From the NCBI RefSeq assembly GCF_035561115.1, contig NZ_DATMYH010000035.1, positions 208-64,207 of the forward strand: 64,000 bases of DNA, given 5' to 3'. A program made the position numbers and the translations under genes. The notes under the pieces were generated by a model that saw nothing but the letters and a program-made list of their open reading frames with translations, had not been told where the DNA came from and did no database searches. Below are positions 6,113 to 61,709 of the stretch, one piece after another. Source of the stretch: Brevundimonas sp. (GTDB lineage: Bacteria; Pseudomonadota; Alphaproteobacteria; Caulobacterales; Caulobacteraceae). Numbering within the stretch: position 1 is the first letter of the stretch; every line of letters starts with the position of its first letter.

Positions 6113-6876
6113 TACAGGACCCCCGCGGTCTTGAGTTTCGCAACCAGTTCGGCGGCGTCGGCCACCTTGATTCCGGCCGAGCGCTGCGGCGGGGCCGTGA
6201 CCTTGACCACCTTCAGCCGCGGCGCGGTGTCGACGCCATAGTCGGCGACCGCCTTGACCGCGATCTCCTTCTTCTTGGCCTTCATGATGTTGGGCAGGGA
6301 GGCGTAGCGCGGGGTGTTCAGCCGCAGGTCGACCGACACCACCGCCGGCAGGGTCGCCGACAGGGTCTGCAGGCCGCCGTCGACCTCGCGCGTCACGGTC
6401 GCCTTGCCGTCGGCCATGACGATCTTGCCGGCGAAGGTGGCCTGGGGCCAGTCCAGCAGGGCGGCCAGCATCTGGCCGACCGCATTGTTGTCGCCGTCGA
6501 TCGATTGCTTGCCCAGCAGGACCAGATCCGGCTTCTCCTCGTCGACCACGGCCTTCAGCAGCTTGGCCACGGCCAGCGGCTCCAGATCGGCGTCCGACTG
6601 GATCAGCAGACCCCGGTCCGCGCCCATGGCCAGGGCCGTGCGGATGGTTTCCTGGGCCTGGGTCACGCCGATCGAGACGACCACGATCTCGGTCACGGTC
6701 CCGGCGGCGTGATGCTCCTTGCCCTCCTTCATGCGCACGGCCTCTTCGACGGCGATCTCGTCGAAGGGATTCATGCTCATCTTGACGTTGGCCAGATCAA
6801 CGCCGGTCTGGTCCGCCTTGACGCGAGCCTTGACGTTGTAGTCGATCACCCGTTTGACGGGGACGAGAACCTTCAT
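6112..6876 (-). CDS. etfB: Electron transfer flavoprotein beta subunit
   Basis: Start [13 protein letters not shown] at 6876; [44 protein letters not shown]. Confidence 0.97.
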
Positions 6877-36248: not shown

Positions 36249-36399
36249 CCACCCTCCCGCGACCGTCAGCCTACAGGCTGAAACGCCGTCCTGTCCGGGT
36301 CTCCGTCGCACATGACAAAAAATTCAGGCGACAGCCGGGAGCGGCGGCGTAGGGTCCCCGCCGACGCTGTCCATAGAGATGCGAAGTCGAGGGAATTCC

Positions 36400-38526
36400 A
36401 TGAAGAAACTGCTGATCGGCGCCGCGCTCGGCGCCCTGCTGCTGCCCGCCTCGGCCGCGGCCGCCCAGGACCATGATCACGGCTGTATCGACGAAAGCTG
36501 CACTGTCTTAGAACTGTTCCAGACCCCGCCCGAAGGCGCGACGGTTCTGGGCTATCAGGGCACGGAAACGCCGAAATACGGGACCTGGGGCTTTGACCTC
36601 GCCGGCCGCGACACCTCGGTCGCGCCGGGCGACAGCTTCATGCGCTACGCCAACGGCGCCGCGCTGGACCGCATGCAGATTCCGTCGGACCGCACCAGCT
36701 ACGGCTCGTTCGCCCTGCTGCGCGAACTGTCCGACAACCGGGTCAAGGCGATGATCGAGGGTCTCGTGGCCCGCACCGACCTGACCGCCGGCTCGGACGA
36801 GCAGAAGATCGCCGACGCCTATCGCTCGTACATGGACGAGGCGCGGATCGAGGCGCTGGACGCCCAGCCGCTGCAGCCCTACCTGGCCGCCATCCGCGCC
36901 GCCGACACCCACGACAAGGCCGCGGTCTATATGGGCGAGACCCAGGGCCGCGTCGGCGGTTCGATCTTCGGCACCGGCATCACCACCGACCAGAAGGCCC
37001 CGACCCGCTATGTGGTCTCGACCGGCCAGTCGGGGCTGGGCCTGCCCAACCGCGACTACTATCTGGAACAGCGCTGGGCCGAGAAGAAGGTCCTGTACCA
37101 GGCCTATGTCGCCCGCATGCTGGGCATGATCGGCTGGGAGAACCCCGAACAGGCCGCCGCCGACATCGTGGCCTTCGAAACCCGCATCGCCGAAGCGCAC
37201 TGGACCCCGATCCAGAACCGCAACCGCGACGAGACCTACAACGAATACACCATCGCCCAACTGGCGTCGGAGGCCCCCGGCTTCCCGTGGCAGGACTATT
37301 ACACCGCCGTCGGCGTGGGCGAGGTTCCGCGCCTGATCGTCCGGCAGGACACGGCCATGCCGAAGATCGCCGCCATCTACGCCGAGACGCCGATCGCCAC
37401 GGTGCAGGCCTGGCAGGCCTTCCACACGACGGACGACGCCGCGCCGCGCCTGTCGCGGCGCTTCGCCGACGCCCAGTGGGAGTTCCGCTCGCGCGATCTG
37501 AACGGCCAGCCGATGCAGCGCCCCCGCGACAAGCGCGGCATCAGCTTCGCCGAAGGCATGCTGGGCGAGGCCGTCGGCCGCCAGTATGTGGCCGAATATT
37601 TCCCCGCCGAATCCAAGGCCAAGATGGAGCAGCTGGTCGCGAATCTGCGCACCGCCCTGGGCAACCGCATCCAGAACTACAGCTGGATGAGCGCCGAGAC
37701 CCGCGCAGCAGCCCAGGACAAGCTGGACAAATTCACCGTCAAGATCGGCTATCCCAACAAATGGCGTGACTATTCGGCGCTCGAGGTCAGGGCCGACGAC
37801 CTGTTCGGCAACAGCGAGCGCGCCGGCCTGTTCCAGTGGAATTACCAGCTGAACCGTCTGAACCAGCCGGTCGACAAGGCCGAATGGGGCATGACCCCGC
37901 AGACGGTGAACGCCTATTACAATTCGACCAACAACGAGATCGTCTTCCCGGCGGCGATCCTGCAGCCGCCGTTCTTCGATCCGGACGCGGACCCGGCCGT
38001 CAACTACGGCGGCATCGGCGGCGTCATCGGCCACGAGATCGGCCACGGCTTCGACGACCAGGGCTCCAAGTCCGACGGCGACGGCGTGCTGCGCAGCTGG
38101 TGGACCCCTGAGGACCGGGCCAATTTCGACGCCCTGACAAAGCGGCTGGGCGAGCAGTACGACCAGTTCGAGCCGATCCCTGGCTTCAAGGTCCAGGGCG
38201 GCCTGACCATGGGCGAGAACATCGGCGACGCCGCCGGCAATGCGGTGGGTCTGGAAGCCTACCATCTGTCGCTGAACGGCCAGCCGGCGCCCGTGCTGGA
38301 CGGCGTCACGGGCGACCAGCGCTTCTTCTACGGCTGGGCCCAGGTCTGGCAGTCGAAGATGCGCGACGACGCCCTTCGCAACCAGATCGCCACCGATCCG
38401 CACAGCCCGGCCGAGTTCCGCGTCATCGGCCCGGTGCGCAACGTCGACGCCTGGTACGACGCCTTCGACGTCCAGCCGGGCTCGAAATACTACCTCGCCC
38501 CGGAAGACCGGGTCCGCATCTGGTAG
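36400..38526 (+). CDS. M13 family metallopeptidase (PepO/neprilysin-like)
   Basis: Signal peptide, PGDSFMRYANG, VNAYY, HEIGH zinc motif, GENIGD, DPHSP. Confidence 0.95.
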   Translation: MKKLLIGAALGALLLPASAAAAQDHDHGCIDESCTVLELFQTPPEGATVLGYQGTETPKYGTWGFDLAGRDTSVAPGDSFMRYANGAALDRMQIPSDRTSYGSFALLRELSDNRVKAMIEGLVARTDLTAGSDEQKIADAYRSYMDEARIEALDAQPLQPYLAAIRAADTHDKAAVYMGETQGRVGGSIFGTGITTDQKAPTRYVVSTGQSGLGLPNRDYYLEQRWAEKKVLYQAYVARMLGMIGWENPEQAAADIVAFETRIAEAHWTPIQNRNRDETYNEYTIAQLASEAPGFPWQDYYTAVGVGEVPRLIVRQDTAMPKIAAIYAETPIATVQAWQAFHTTDDAAPRLSRRFADAQWEFRSRDLNGQPMQRPRDKRGISFAEGMLGEAVGRQYVAEYFPAESKAKMEQLVANLRTALGNRIQNYSWMSAETRAAAQDKLDKFTVKIGYPNKWRDYSALEVRADDLFGNSERAGLFQWNYQLNRLNQPVDKAEWGMTPQTVNAYYNSTNNEIVFPAAILQPPFFDPDADPAVNYGGIGGVIGHEIGHGFDDQGSKSDGDGVLRSWWTPEDRANFDALTKRLGEQYDQFEPIPGFKVQGGLTMGENIGDAAGNAVGLEAYHLSLNGQPAPVLDGVTGDQRFFYGWAQVWQSKMRDDALRNQIATDPHSPAEFRVIGPVRNVDAWYDAFDVQPGSKYYLAPEDRVRIW

Positions 38527-38549
38527 GCCTTCCACAGGCTGAAGACCGA

Positions 38550-38584
38550 GGGGTCGGAGCGAAAGCTTCGGCCCCTTTTTCTTT
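38550..38584 (+). terminator. Rho-independent terminator
   Basis: ggggtcggagc-gaaa-gcttcggcccc-ttttt. Confidence 0.85.
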
Positions 38585-38750
38585 CGTCATCCTCCGGCGA
38601 GCGCAGCGAGACCCGGGGGACCCGGCGGCGGCGAAGGCGATCTGTTCACGCACGCTGTTTGCGGACGGAGTTCTCGACAGGTTCGCGCTCTCGCGCGCCG
38701 CTGGGTCCCCCGGTCTGCGCCGCGAAGGCGCGGCTTGCCGGAGGATGACG
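38585..38750. repeat. GTCATCC...GGATGAC REP-like palindromic element
   Basis: cgtcatcctccggc ... gccggaggatgacg outer arms; inner arms gggggaccc / gggtccccc. Confidence 0.8.
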
Positions 38751-38777
38751 ACGAGAGAAGCGTGGAACTCCAGACGC

Positions 38778-38900
38778 AAAAAAGCCCGCCGCGGGGGATA
38801 CATCGCGGCGGGCTTCTTTTCGCTCTTTGACGAGCGGACGTTTCCTCCCCGAAACGCCTTCGAGCCGCTGCTGCGCCGAAACGCTGCGCTTCCCGAGTGC
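38778..38900 (-). ncRNA. Candidate sRNA, CrfA-like sponge
   Basis: TTGACT at 38933-38928 upstream; hairpin cgtttc-GGGGAG-gaaacg; hairpin cgctc/gagcg; 12-bp terminator stem with U6; no ORF. Confidence 0.62.
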
Positions 38901-38981
38901 GTCAAAAAGACGACATTTCTCAGTTCAAGTCAATGAAAGCCTTGCGGAACTCACAGTAAATCCAAGGTTATCGCTGATAAC

Positions 38982-40475
38982 TCACGAAGCTGTGTGCACA
39001 CCTTCGACGATGGCCCGGACGGCGGCGACCAGTTCGGCGCGCGCGACCACCCTTTGCCCCGGCCGTTCGGATTTCCACGCCTCGTTGTCGGTCACGCCGG
39101 CGGCCAGGGCGCGCCCGGCGTCGAGGTCCTTGACCGTGACCTGGCCGGCGGCGATCTCGTCGCCGCCGAGGATGACGGCGGCGGGCGCGCCGCGGCGGTC
39201 GGCGTACTTCATCTGCGCCTTCATGCCGGCCCGGCCGAGGTAGAGTTCGGCGGCGATTCCGGCGTTGCGCAGCTCTGACACGGCGTCGAGATAGTGCTGC
39301 ATGTCGGCGTCCGAGAAGACGATGACGACCACCGGGCCACGGACGGAATCCGCCGCGCCGCGCCCCGCCGCCTTCAATGCCGAGGCCAGCCGCGAGACGC
39401 CGAACGAGAAGCCGGTGGCGGGCAGGCGTTCGCCGGTGAAGCGGGCGACCAGATCATCGTACCGGCCGCCGCCGCCGATCGAGCCGAACCGCACGGCCCG
39501 GCCCCTGTCGTCGGTCGTGTCCAGCAGCAGCTCGGCCTCGAACACGGCGCCGGTGTAATACTCCAGCCCGCGCACGATGGTCGGGTCGAAGCGCACCGCG
39601 TCTTCGCTCACCCTCATCGAGACCAGGGCCCGGTCTATGGCCGCCAGTTCCTCGAGAGCCGCCTCTCCGATGGCGCCGAGGCCGCCGGCGCGCGCCACAG
39701 CCTCAAGCGTCGCCGTCCGGGACAGGGCGGCGTCGCCCGCCGAGGCGAGGAAGGCCTCGATGGTCGCCGCCACGCCGATCGGGAGATCCGCCCCCCTGGT
39801 GTAGTCGCCGGACTCATCCAGGCGGCCCTCGCCGAGAAGGGCCGACACCCCCTCCCAGCCCAGCCGGTCGAACTTGTCGATGGCGCGCAGGGCGGTGAGG
39901 CGCTGGCGCGGATCGGTGACGCCGCCGGCGTCGAACAGGCCGTCGAACAGCTTGCGGTTCGACACCCGGACCACGGCCTGGTCCGCGTCCAGCCCGGCGG
40001 CCTGCAGCCCCTCGCAGGCCATGGCGATGATCTCGGCGTCGGCCTCCGGCCGGTCGGAGCCGACCGTGTCCGCGTCGCACTGGACGAATTCGCGGAAGCG
40101 GCCCGGACCGGGCTTCTCGTTGCGCCACACGGGACCGAAGGCGTAGCGGCGGAACGGCTTGGGCAGGGTTTCCCAGCCCTGGGCCGCGAACCGGGCCAGG
40201 GGCGCGGTCAGATCGTAGCGCAGCGCCATCCACTGGTCGTCGTCGTCCTGCAGGGCGAAGACGCCCTCGTTCGGACGGTCGGCGTCGGGCAGGAATTTGC
40301 CCAGGGCGTCGGCGTATTCGAAGGCGCCGGTCTCCAGCGGCTCGAAGCCCCAGCGCTCATAGACTTCGGACACGCGCGCCACCAGGCGGCGCTCGGCGGT
40401 CAGATCCGCGCCGCGGCGGTCGGCGAACCCCCGCGGATTGCGGGCTTCGGGGCGGGACGGCGTATCGGTGCTCAT
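38982..40475 (-). CDS. hisS: Histidyl-tRNA synthetase
   Basis: PRGFAD, ALRYDLTAPLARF, WRNEKPGPGRFREFVQCDAD, RGLEYYTG, GGGRYDDL. Confidence 0.97.
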   Translation of the reverse strand: MSTDTPSRPEARNPRGFADRRGADLTAERRLVARVSEVYERWGFEPLETGAFEYADALGKFLPDADRPNEGVFALQDDDDQWMALRYDLTAPLARFAAQGWETLPKPFRRYAFGPVWRNEKPGPGRFREFVQCDADTVGSDRPEADAEIIAMACEGLQAAGLDADQAVVRVSNRKLFDGLFDAGGVTDPRQRLTALRAIDKFDRLGWEGVSALLGEGRLDESGDYTRGADLPIGVAATIEAFLASAGDAALSRTATLEAVARAGGLGAIGEAALEELAAIDRALVSMRVSEDAVRFDPTIVRGLEYYTGAVFEAELLLDTTDDRGRAVRFGSIGGGGRYDDLVARFTGERLPATGFSFGVSRLASALKAAGRGAADSVRGPVVVIVFSDADMQHYLDAVSELRNAGIAAELYLGRAGMKAQMKYADRRGAPAAVILGGDEIAAGQVTVKDLDAGRALAAGVTDNEAWKSERPGQRVVARAELVAAVRAIVEGVHTAS

Positions 40476-40539
40476 GCCGCGCCGCTTAAGCCATCGCCCG
40501 CCGGCGGGCAACGATCCCGACGAGGCTCCCGGTCAGTCC

Positions 40540-41805
40540 TCAGGCGACCGCGGTCTTCAGCAGCGGCACCATCCGGCCGTAGGTCAGGCAACGCCACACC
40601 CATTCCAGCGGACCCATGGTGAAGACCGACAGCCACAGCGGCGACCAGATCAACTGGGCGATCCACACGGCTGCGACCACGCCCCACAGCGCGCCCGGCC
40701 CCATGGTCCCGAACCAGTGCGGACCCCAGGGCATGTAGAACAGGGTCGACATGATCAGGGTCTGGGTGAGGTAGTTGGTGAAGGCCATCCGCCCGACCGG
40801 AGCCAGAACCTGCGTCAGCGGCTTCAGCCCGAACCGGGTCATCAGGATCAGGAGGCTGGCGTAGCCGAGGGTGATCAGGGGCGCGAAACTGCCTCCGACG
40901 CCGGCGAGACCGCGGGTCGGATCCTCGCCGGACGCCGCATTGGCTTCGATCCATTGATACCAGCCGAAGAAGGCCAGGTTGGCCGCGCCGATGGCCAGCA
41001 TCAACAGATAGACCCAGGTCGGCGACCGGCCGGTCAGGAAGCCGGACTTGAACAGGCCCAGGCCCAGCAGCATCAGGCTGACGGTGATCGGGATCAGGAC
41101 GAGGCTGGCGGACTGCAGGATCGCCCAGGCCTTGAGGTTCTCGATCTGCGCCGCGGGCCAGCCGGACTGGTAGGCCTGGATGACGGCCGCCAGCCCCTCG
41201 GGCGTGACCGCGAACGGATTCCCGTCGCCGCCGGCCGCCGCCGGGCCGCCTCCGCTGAACGCCGCCTCTCCCAGCATGGCGCCCGCCGACAACAGGCCGA
41301 ACAGCAGGTTGATCCCCCCGCCGATCCATATCAGCCGGCCGGCCTTCCAGGATCGCATGACCATGACGATCAGCGCGCAGTAGGCGTAGTGCAGCAGGAT
41401 GTCGCCCAGCCAGAAGGCGGCGCCGTGGATCAGGCCGAAGACCGCCAGCCAGAACAGCCGGCGGCGCAGCAACCGGCCCCGCGCCGCGTCGAACCGCTCG
41501 CCGCCGATCAGGAAGATCGAGACGCCGAACAGCATCGAGAACATCGAGCGGAATTTGTCCTGGAAGAAGACGTCGGTGGTCCAGGCGCCGAGGATGTTGG
41601 CCGGGCTGTGCGGCCAGGGTTCCGGCAGGCCCGTCGTCATCTCCAGCGCCGCGGGCCAGACGAACGACATGGCGTTGACGGCGAGGATGCCGAGGATCGC
41701 CCAGCCTCTGAGCATGTCGAGCGTGAAGATACGGTCGGCGGGCCTGACCGGTCCGAGCGTCGCGTCCGCGGCCGGCGGCGACGCCTGGATTTCGACTGCG
41801 GCCAT
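40540..41805 (-). CDS. DUF418 (YeiB) family membrane protein
   Basis: RIFTLDMLRGWAILGIL, KFRSMFSMLFG, GRMAFTNYLTQT, GPLEWVWR. Confidence 0.9.
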   Translation of the reverse strand: MAAVEIQASPPAADATLGPVRPADRIFTLDMLRGWAILGILAVNAMSFVWPAALEMTTGLPEPWPHSPANILGAWTTDVFFQDKFRSMFSMLFGVSIFLIGGERFDAARGRLLRRRLFWLAVFGLIHGAAFWLGDILLHYAYCALIVMVMRSWKAGRLIWIGGGINLLFGLLSAGAMLGEAAFSGGGPAAAGGDGNPFAVTPEGLAAVIQAYQSGWPAAQIENLKAWAILQSASLVLIPITVSLMLLGLGLFKSGFLTGRSPTWVYLLMLAIGAANLAFFGWYQWIEANAASGEDPTRGLAGVGGSFAPLITLGYASLLILMTRFGLKPLTQVLAPVGRMAFTNYLTQTLIMSTLFYMPWGPHWFGTMGPGALWGVVAAVWIAQLIWSPLWLSVFTMGPLEWVWRCLTYGRMVPLLKTAVA

Positions 41806-41873
41806 GACGTATCCCCCGAGGTTGGCCGGGCAAGCTTGGCCGAACCGTCGGCCGCGTCAAAGGGAAATCGGCG

Positions 41874-42443
41874 TCAGCCCGGACCGCGTTCGCCCATGAC
41901 GCCAAGCCGGTCGCGCACCTCGGGCTGGGGCATGAAGGCGATGAAGGCGGCGCACAGGCCGGCCCACAGCGCGTAGCTGACGCCCAGCAGCACGGCGATC
42001 GGCAGGCCGCCGACGCCATAGATCAGCAGGGTGGTCTCGGTCGCGCCCGCTGCCTGGGCGACGCCGCCGGCCTCGAACCAGCCGACGATCGACACGACAA
42101 GGGCCAGCATGGCCTGAAGGCCGGCCGCCAGCAGGCCGCCGTAGAACATGAAACGCCAGACCACGCCCAGCCGGGTCGCCGGCCGGCCGGTCCGGTCGCG
42201 TTCGCGCGCCAGAAGCCACAGCCCGCCCGGCACGGCCGCCAGACCGATGACCAGCACCAGCAGCCGCCAGTCCATCTCGAGGCTGGGCAGCCAGTTCTGC
42301 GGCGGCCAGACGACCAGGGTGATGACCAGCGGCGGCCACAGGGCTCCGGCCAGCGCCGCCAGCACGATGCGCTGCGGATCGCGGCGCCAGGAGACGCGCT
42401 GCTGGCCGGGAAAGTCTTCCGGCTTGTCCAGCGTCGGGATCAT
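41874..42443 (-). CDS. Hypothetical membrane protein (4 TM)
   Basis: Hydrophobic helices; ATGA-type overlap with hbd. Confidence 0.75.
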   Translation of the reverse strand: MIPTLDKPEDFPGQQRVSWRRDPQRIVLAALAGALWPPLVITLVVWPPQNWLPSLEMDWRLLVLVIGLAAVPGGLWLLARERDRTGRPATRLGVVWRFMFYGGLLAAGLQAMLALVVSIVGWFEAGGVAQAAGATETTLLIYGVGGLPIAVLLGVSYALWAGLCAAFIAFMPQPEVRDRLGVMGERGPG

Positions 42444-60771: not shown

Positions 60772-60853
60772 GACGCCTCCGGGCGTCATGCCCTTCCTGG
60801 GCGTTTCCTCCCTAAAGACTTTTATGCCGCGCCTTCGGGCGCGGCTTTTTTTT
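60772..60853 (+). ncRNA. alpha-r8 / suhB / MmgR / Sis family sRNA
   Basis: Core cccttcctgggcgtttcctccctaaagactt; 5' hairpin; terminator gccgcgcc-ttcg-ggcgcggc-T8; convergent with N-formylglutamate amidohydrolase next to cpdR and tRNA-Val, the context I recall for alpha-r8s1. Confidence 0.85.
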
Positions 60854-61709
60854 ACGCCTCGTCCAGCAAGGCGGCGATGACCCGCGCGACCCCTTTCCGG
60901 GTCCGGATCCAGCCGGCCGACGGCGCCCGGGCGGCCTCGTCGAAATACAGGGCGCGGTTCAACTCGATCTGGACAGCGTGAAATCCTTCGTGCGGCCGCC
61001 CCCAGGCCTGGGTCGTCCAGCCGCCGGCATAGGGCTGGTTCAGCGCCACCCGCCAGCCGAGCGTCTCGAACGCCCGCCGCAGACGCCGCGTCAAATCCGC
61101 CGAACACGACGAGCCGTGCCGGTCCCCCAGCACCACCTCGGGTCCGCGCGCCCCGCCTGCGGCCTGGGTCGCGCGCGCCGGCATCGAATGCCAGTCGACC
61201 AGCACCGCTTCGCCATGACGATCCCGCGCCGCCCGCATCTGTTCTCCCAGAGCCGCGTGATAGGGGGCGTGAACCCGCGCGATCCGTCCCCGGGCCTCCT
61301 TCAGACTCAGCCGACGCGCGTACAGCGGCCGTCCGTCCCCCGTCAGGCGAGGAATGACGCCGTAGCCCGCCGCAGTCCGCGGGGAACCCGTCCCCTGACC
61401 CGCTCCCTCGATCAGGGTTGGGTCCAGATCGCCGGGATCGCGGTTCAGATCGACGTAGGCCCGGCCCAGCCGTCCCAGCACCAGAGCCGCCCCGCCCGCG
61501 GCGCCCGGCGCGATCAGCTGGTCGACAAGGGCGTCCTCGGCGCTGCGCAGGCTGGCCTCGGGCAGGGACGGATCGCAGTTCATGTCCGCCGGATACACCC
61601 CGCCCGAGTGGGGCGAGGCGAAGACGAACCGCCCCGGCTCCGCGGCCTGCACGACGGCGAAACCCGCCGCGTCGTCCGTCCGATCCCCGCTGCCGTCCCC
61701 TGTATTCAT
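60852..61709 (-). CDS. N-formylglutamate amidohydrolase
   Basis: ASPHSG, RAYVDLNRD, GYGVIP, DWHSMP, VLGDRHG, NQPYAGG, AVQIELNRALY. Confidence 0.92.
   Translation of the reverse strand: MNTGDGSGDRTDDAAGFAVVQAAEPGRFVFASPHSGGVYPADMNCDPSLPEASLRSAEDALVDQLIAPGAAGGAALVLGRLGRAYVDLNRDPGDLDPTLIEGAGQGTGSPRTAAGYGVIPRLTGDGRPLYARRLSLKEARGRIARVHAPYHAALGEQMRAARDRHGEAVLVDWHSMPARATQAAGGARGPEVVLGDRHGSSCSADLTRRLRRAFETLGWRVALNQPYAGGWTTQAWGRPHEGFHAVQIELNRALYFDEAARAPSAGWIRTRKGVARVIAALLDEA

Follow-up and report, generated by a model that had tools for sequence, protein, structure and literature searches.

CrfA of Caulobacter crescentus (CCNA_R0093; Rfam family RF01527; Landt et al. 2010) was described in a 2025 study as an Hfq-dependent sponge of the alphaR8 small RNAs (PMC12559287). 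Upon carbon removal in C. crescentus, CrfA increases about six-fold and SisA decreases about 50-fold in a CrfA-dependent manner, which lifts the repression of the SisA targets, for the most part TonB-dependent receptors (PMC12559287). A functional counterpart is QrrX of Vibrio, cited in the same study (PMC12559287), a dedicated noncoding RNA that base-pairs with the seed of a different sRNA family and accelerates the decay of that family; sequence, host and signal of the two systems are unrelated, and the likeness is functional only. No description of CrfA in Brevundimonas was found in our literature search; the two names occur together, once each, in a single paper.

In this study, we analyzed a 64,000-nt stretch of DNA from Brevundimonas sp. 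(contig NZ_DATMYH010000035.1, positions 208 to 64,207), hereafter called the window. The nearest relatives of its HisS protein come from named Brevundimonas, with identity up to 96%. The hisS gene and an M13 peptidase gene converge in the window, and the 455-bp gap between them holds the element under study, whose features are collected in Table 1. Judged from its sequence, the element is a real sRNA gene, the Brevundimonas orthologue of crfA and an ordinary member of the described family. As the full explanation of the locus, we consider it very probable that this crfA orthologue has its own promoter and most likely acts as an Hfq-dependent sponge of alphaR8. The analysis shows that the element belongs to the CrfA family and on which strand it lies, establishes its structure, the order of the genes around it and its complementarity to alphaR8, and finds both the partner sRNA and hfq in the genome. 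A gap that looks empty thereby gains a correct annotation.

Table 1. Features of the crfA locus and of the predicted partner sRNA (window coordinates).
Feature	Position	Strand	Basis or remark
hisS (histidyl-tRNA synthetase)	38982..40511	-	Pfam tRNA-synt_His + HGTP_anticodon; same-strand neighbour upstream of crfA
M13 peptidase gene	36379..38526	+	Pfam Peptidase_M13_N + Peptidase_M13; convergent neighbour downstream of crfA
Terminator of the M13 peptidase gene	38548-38577	+	Terminator scan
crfA -35 element TTGACT	38933-38928	-	Sequence
crfA weak -10-like hexamer TCTTTT	38910-38905	-	17 nt after -35
Conserved TGnCGTC block overlapping TCTTTT	38905..38915	-	Weight table, 94 unique loci
Predicted CrfA-family sRNA, ~121 nt	38778..38898	-	5' end inferred from promoter geometry; 3' end is the U6 run
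SL1, variable 5' hairpin, base helix UCGGG/CUCGA	38860..38896	-	MFE fold
SL2, GGCGUUUC-GGGGAG-GAAACGUC, near-invariant, G/A-rich loop	38837..38858	-	Fold and pairing in 58 loci
SL2 loop GGGGAG	38850-38845	-	Sequence; predicted RNA positions 49-54
Predicted alphaR8-binding (sponge) site GGGGAGGAAACGUCC, RNA positions 49-63	38836..38850	-	Complementarity
SL3 hairpin CGCUC-N6-GAGCG	38821..38836	-	MFE fold and RNAalifold consensus
Intrinsic terminator: A-rich lead-in, G+C-rich stem, loop GAUGUAUCCCCC, U6	38778..38816	-	Terminator hairpin search
Terminator loop GAUGUAUCCCCC	38791-38803	-	Conserved
Terminator U-run	38783-38778	-	Sequence
alphaR8/MmgR/SisA-type sRNA, predicted sponge partner	60772..60853	+	RF00519 match at 60783-60861

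The CrfA model RF01527 matches positions 38773-38881 of the minus strand over model positions 1-136 with 44.8 bits, against a curated gathering cut-off of 38 bits. It is the single match in the 3.3-Mb genome (E = 1.3e-6 genome-wide). The name CrfA had been proposed in the preliminary description, and the match, being above the cut-off, on the minus strand and present once in the genome, bears it out. The same holds for the likeness claimed there to the core of Caulobacter CrfA, as the core GGGGAGGAAAC is common to both. Exactly one match per genome was found in all 24 other Brevundimonas genomes searched. With the window's own genome counted, 19 of the 25 genus genomes exceed the cut-off, and five of the 24 fall just below it. 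Throughout the Caulobacteraceae the model matches in 74 of 81 genomes, covering 26 of 27 genera and never more than once per genome, and outside this family the search of sixteen genomes of the order gave two weak matches only, both below the cut-off. Based on these counts across genus, family and order, CrfA is a core, single-copy gene of Caulobacteraceae. The score of the window copy ranks among the lowest of the family, and the Brevundimonas copies are the most divergent CrfA members. Other Rfam matches obtained (ar35, ar14, Thr and Leu leaders, and microRNA models) lie far under their cut-offs and reflect the terminator or a palindromic repeat nearby. The alphaR8 model RF00519 gave no match at the crfA site.

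A comparison with C. crescentus CrfA reveals shared and differing features. Both RNAs possess SL2 with the GGGGAG loop and a 15-nt alphaR8-complementary site at positions 49-63, and SL2 of the window is identical to that of Caulobacter except for a C to U change at position 61, which yields a G.U pair both within SL2 and with alphaR8. The promoter geometry, with a TTGAC -35 element and a conserved CGT block, and the terminator loop UAUCCCC are also common to the two, and the gene is single-copy in both. However, the window RNA has about 121 nt against 136 positions of the RF01527 model, with an SL1 insert of 12 nt rather than 29. Its SL3 is CGCUC/GAGCG, as in Phenylobacterium-type loci, whereas Caulobacter has an AUCGA hairpin. 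The outer helix of the Rfam model, enclosing SL3 and the terminator, and a small inner hairpin are non-canonical in the window copy; SL2 and the terminator fit the model, the latter being of canonical type (A-rich lead-in, U6). CrfA and alphaR8 are partners, not relatives: the CrfA terminator loop is C-rich like the alphaR8 seed, but CrfA carries the seed complement GGGGAGGAAAC and not the seed itself.

The gene occupies the same chromosomal slot in the two genera, after the hisS operon and ahead of a convergent M13 peptidase gene. The core GGGGAGGAA[A/G]CG was found on the hisS strand in 102 loci. The typical order in Brevundimonas is hisS, the crfA core about 150-200 nt after hisS, and then the convergent M13 peptidase gene. 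Loci of Caulobacter and Phenylobacterium are arranged as hisS-hisZ-hisG, the crfA core about 2.3 kb after hisS, and then the M13 peptidase gene; the two intervening genes encode a protein with a HisRS-like domain (hisZ type) and HisG. The window locus lacks hisZ-hisG, and crfA directly follows hisS. At the equivalent place of a Caulobacter locus (L101) RF01527 matches with 156.6 bits. The hisS/M13-peptidase neighbourhood given in the preliminary description is thus the conserved CrfA setting, seen in named Caulobacter, Phenylobacterium and Brevundimonas loci.

Two further elements were observed around these loci. A gene for a second Rfam sRNA, CC3513 (RF01528), closely precedes hisS, on the other strand, in the Caulobacter locus L101 (2754-2927, minus strand, 134.7 bits) and in the Phenylobacterium locus L071 (2718-2882, minus strand, 49.8 bits), and its model gave no match in the Brevundimonas window. 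Moreover, crfA of Caulobacter and Phenylobacterium is flanked by inverted copies of GTCAAAAA / TTTTTGAC, one upstream of the promoter and one after the terminator (e.g. 6660-6680 and 6895-6910 in L101; also L079 and L090); such a pair was not seen in Brevundimonas loci.

The -35 element had been read in the preliminary description as TTGACT on the minus strand and is present there. All 102 core-bearing loci have a TTGAC 72-99 nt ahead of the core, without any variation among the 94 unique promoter segments. A weight table of these 94 unique loci anchored on TTGAC displays the conserved positions T18, G19, C21, G22, T23, Y24 and T28, denoting a second block TGnCGTY (TTGAC-N13-TGnCGTY) followed by T-rich bases, from +18 to +28. 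Neither block varies among sequences from Brevundimonas, Caulobacter and loci of the Phenylobacterium type. The geometry of L101, TTGACA-17-TTTCTA-7-G(+1), is matched by that of the window. Applied to L101, the rule of TTGACN, 17 nt, a hexamer, and 6 or 7 nt to the start gives position 6747, which is the start of the RF01527 match and model position 1. By the same rule, crfA of the window would start at about 38898, and GGGGAG would then fall at positions 49-54 of the RNA, as in C. crescentus. The -10 element (TCTTTT) is weak, as noted before, since our promoter scan calls no sigma-70 consensus promoter here.

The promoter block may mark carbon-starvation control of crfA. The pattern TTGAC-N13-TGNCGTY-N3-T occurs once in the genome, at crfA, and the reversed-pattern control likewise gave one match; a regulon sharing the crfA promoter pattern was accordingly rejected, as crfA alone carries it. 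An EcfG/sigma-T promoter (GGAAC-N16-CGTT) was considered as well due to the fitting spacing of TTGAC-N16-CGTY, and was found unsupported because the crfA -35 element has only the bases AC in common with GGAAC.

An alternative reading takes the element for nothing but the 3' end of the hisS mRNA, with the hairpins as the hisS terminator region and the sRNA as a processing product of read-through. The terminator scan found no intrinsic terminator between the hisS stop (38982) and crfA, and the 66 nt between hisS and the element fold no better than shuffled sequences (z = +0.89), so part of the RNA could stem from hisS read-through, and the crfA terminator is the first good terminator after hisS. 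We nevertheless regard this origin as improbable. The promoter motif stands at a fixed distance from the RNA core and is conserved in 94 unique loci, and in Caulobacter and Phenylobacterium the RNA follows hisG instead of hisS, yet the promoter stays. The agreement between the start in L101 by promoter geometry and the first position of the RF01527 model argues in the same direction. Read-through from hisS may add to the RNA pool, but it leaves the promoter unexplained.

Immediately after the hisS stop codon lies a palindrome, GTTATCAGCGATAAC (38967-38981, minus strand). Most Brevundimonas loci keep a TTATC...GATAA or TTATCGACGTTCAGTC motif there, about 49 nt ahead of the crfA -35 element. This motif might be bound by a protein or might belong to the 3' end of hisS.

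The predicted RNA folds with an MFE of -73 kcal/mol (z = -4.68), and none of 200 shuffles was as good. The preliminary description counted three hairpins, and the number is corrected to four here, namely SL1, SL2, SL3 and the terminator; the hairpin exposing GGGGAG and the strong terminator with U6 are both found as described. An alignment was made from 58 distinct Brevundimonas sequences, and RNAalifold recovers SL2, SL3 and the terminator from it. With the base helix of SL1 added, 98.2% of the cells pair over the 58 loci, against 45-52% in slid controls, changes on both sides occur at seven pairs, and the observed covariation score was reached by none of 500 shuffles. The hairpins differ in how they vary. 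Both sides change at four of the five pairs in the base helix of SL1, where 93% of the cells pair in the 58 loci. SL3 pairs in 96.9% of the cells, and the same hairpin is found in a Phenylobacterium-type locus (L074). One stem pair of the terminator swaps between C-G and U-A in 28 of the 58 sequences, with 99.4% of the cells paired. SL2 pairs in 100% of the cells; five of its eight pairs never vary and the other three vary on one side. This near invariance of SL2 points to a sequence-specific role beyond folding.

The repeated motif GCGUUUCGG pointed out in the preliminary description occurs twice as stated, at 38884-38876 and 38857-38849. As a functional repeat it was rejected: the copy in SL1 is confined to the close clade of the window, about one third of the 58 aligned loci, and the repetition is probably incidental.

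A partner for the conserved site is present within the window. The alphaR8/MmgR/SisA model RF00519 matches with 62.5 bits (cut-off 41) 22 kb from crfA, and this is the sole copy in the genome. Its core GGGCGUUUCCUCCCU lies at 60799-60813 (cores also written as UGGGCGUUUCCUCCCU, UUUCCUCCCU and UGGGCGUUUCCUCCCUAUAGACUU) and is invariant in the 27 Brevundimonas genomes read. Within the genus, 30 of 31 genomes carry alphaR8, in most cases with a single strong copy. The genome of the window also encodes hfq.

According to our computation, GGGGAGGAAACGUCC of CrfA (positions 49-63/64) can form 15 to 16 contiguous pairs with the alphaR8 core UGGGCGUUUCCUCCCU. The 15-mer comprises 13 Watson-Crick and two G.U pairs with a duplex energy of -28 kcal/mol, and the predicted site falls on the same positions as the protected stretch G49-C63 of C. 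crescentus CrfA (PMC12559287). Whole-length RNAduplex energies were uninformative (-77 kcal/mol observed, about -68 in shuffles), and the statistics of contiguous runs and cofolding were used in their place. A contiguous complementary run of 16 nt was matched by 9 of 1000 shuffles. The gain on cofolding, -9.9 kcal/mol against a shuffle mean of -6.2 (sd 3.7), is unexceptional, as 32 of 200 shuffles were at least as good. Neither of the CrfA variants A58G and U61C (locus L002) costs a pair with the invariant alphaR8 core. Because the sites on CrfA and alphaR8 are both invariant in the genus, covariation between the two RNAs cannot support the pairing.

Taking the C. crescentus circuit as a guide, CrfA of Brevundimonas would most likely sponge alphaR8 in an Hfq-dependent manner; for this genus we infer where transcription starts, that starvation induces the RNA, that Hfq is needed and that sponging is the outcome. 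In the proposed mechanism, crfA would have its own minus-strand promoter (TTGACT, 17 nt, TCTTTT), and its transcript would run from about 38898 to the U6 at 38778. The SL2 loop GGGGAG and the 3' arm, together GGGGAGGAAACGUCC, would serve as the antisense of the conserved alphaR8 core. When carbon runs out, CrfA would rise and pair with alphaR8 on Hfq, as in C. crescentus. Part of the alphaR8 core has the very sequence of the SL2 5' arm, GGCGUUUC; we therefore propose that alphaR8 would first pair with the GGGGAG loop, used as a toehold, and from there open the SL2 stem, displacing the GGCGUUUC arm. Pairing would trigger the decay of alphaR8, and the anti-Shine-Dalgarno repression which alphaR8 exerts on its mRNA targets would be relieved.

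The presence of crfA in 26 of the 27 sampled genera suggests that the sponge pair of CrfA and alphaR8 belongs to the core of Caulobacteraceae as a whole and is no peculiarity of Caulobacter. With one sponge and mostly a single alphaR8 in Brevundimonas, against four alphaR8 siblings in C. crescentus, the circuit could be easier to dissect here.

An orthologue of CrfA might also pair mainly with mRNAs directly in Brevundimonas instead of sponging alphaR8, following the model of 2010, and the pairing element could then be the G/A-rich loop or the conserved C-rich loop of the terminator. The 2010 study is cited for the control by CrfA of the stability of 27 mRNAs (PMC3073932), and the terminator loop UAUCCCC, conserved in 93 of 96 members, was neither discussed nor given a role in the 2025 study (PMC12559287). 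However, RIL-seq in C. crescentus gave zero CrfA-mRNA chimeras and the effects on targets there are indirect, via SisA (PMC12559287), and full conservation is seen for both the alphaR8 partner and the 15-nt site in the loci analyzed here. As the main function, direct pairing with mRNAs appears improbable; as an additional role, direct mRNA regulation is possible beside the sponging of alphaR8.

The terminator loop deserves attention in its own right. Of 96 unique family members, 93 retain the bases AUCCCC of UAUCCCC, whereas the stem varies freely, with at least 12 variants. The loop is complementary to GGGGA of the SL2 loop and resembles the alphaR8 seed CCUCCCU. One possibility is an internal loop-loop contact between UAUCCCC and GGGGA, which would keep the sponge site masked until it is opened by Hfq or alphaR8; another is that the loop offers G-rich targets a second site for pairing. 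That the loop is an undescribed functional element of one of these kinds is a conjecture we hold with considerable doubt, and we have the same reserve about the separate proposal that the promoter block marks starvation control. Both are cheap leads, on what switches crfA on and on whether CrfA has a second active site.

The strand of the RNA can be read from its pairs. A G.U pair is found at one position of SL2 in 52 of the 58 sequences, and such frequent G.U pairs would be A.C on the plus strand, so the RNA lies on the minus strand. The terminator scan lists the crfA hairpin for the plus strand only, since the U-run of the minus strand can pair with the upstream A-rich stretch and is counted by the scan as stem. 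The hairpin itself has the shape of a two-way terminator, with a clean U6 on the minus strand only. An RNA on the plus strand, named in the preliminary description as refuting its proposal, is excluded by the G.U pairs and the position of the U-run. The claim made there that about 120 nt are free of ORFs needs qualification, as two ORFs of the mechanical list overlap the element, 38423-38905 (minus strand, 160 aa, TTG start) and 38745-38936 (plus strand, 63 aa); it stands insofar as the 160-aa ORF is judged non-coding. That the region is protein-coding through either of these ORFs, or encodes a plus-strand RNA as a weak RF01527 match of 23 bits at 38714-38825 might suggest, is scarcely credible: the 160-aa ORF has no Pfam match, crosses a dispersed palindromic repeat absent from the site in relatives and contains indels of 1 and 2 nt, not multiples of three, between close relatives, and the plus-strand match is the palindromic terminator alone, the G.U pairs of SL1, SL2 and the terminator all becoming A.C mismatches on that strand.

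Other features were noted in the vicinity. Upstream of hisS, at 40438-42019, long ORFs of 512 aa (plus strand) and 515 aa (minus strand) overlap on opposite strands, and neither matches Pfam. A weak match to BjrC68 at 38514-38584 on the plus strand (28.4 bits, cut-off 39) corresponds to the terminator of the M13 peptidase gene, with its stem at 38548-38577 and then a T-run. Between the terminators of crfA and the M13 peptidase gene lies an imperfect palindrome of about 175 bp (38578-38751), whose arms pair at 38584-38602/38733-38751 with 95% and at 38602-38630/38696-38724 with 79%. The palindrome belongs to a dispersed repeat, of which at least eight further copies with 78-92% identity occur in the genome. 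As relatives have no copy here, the repeat resembles a small non-autonomous mobile element (MITE/REP-like).
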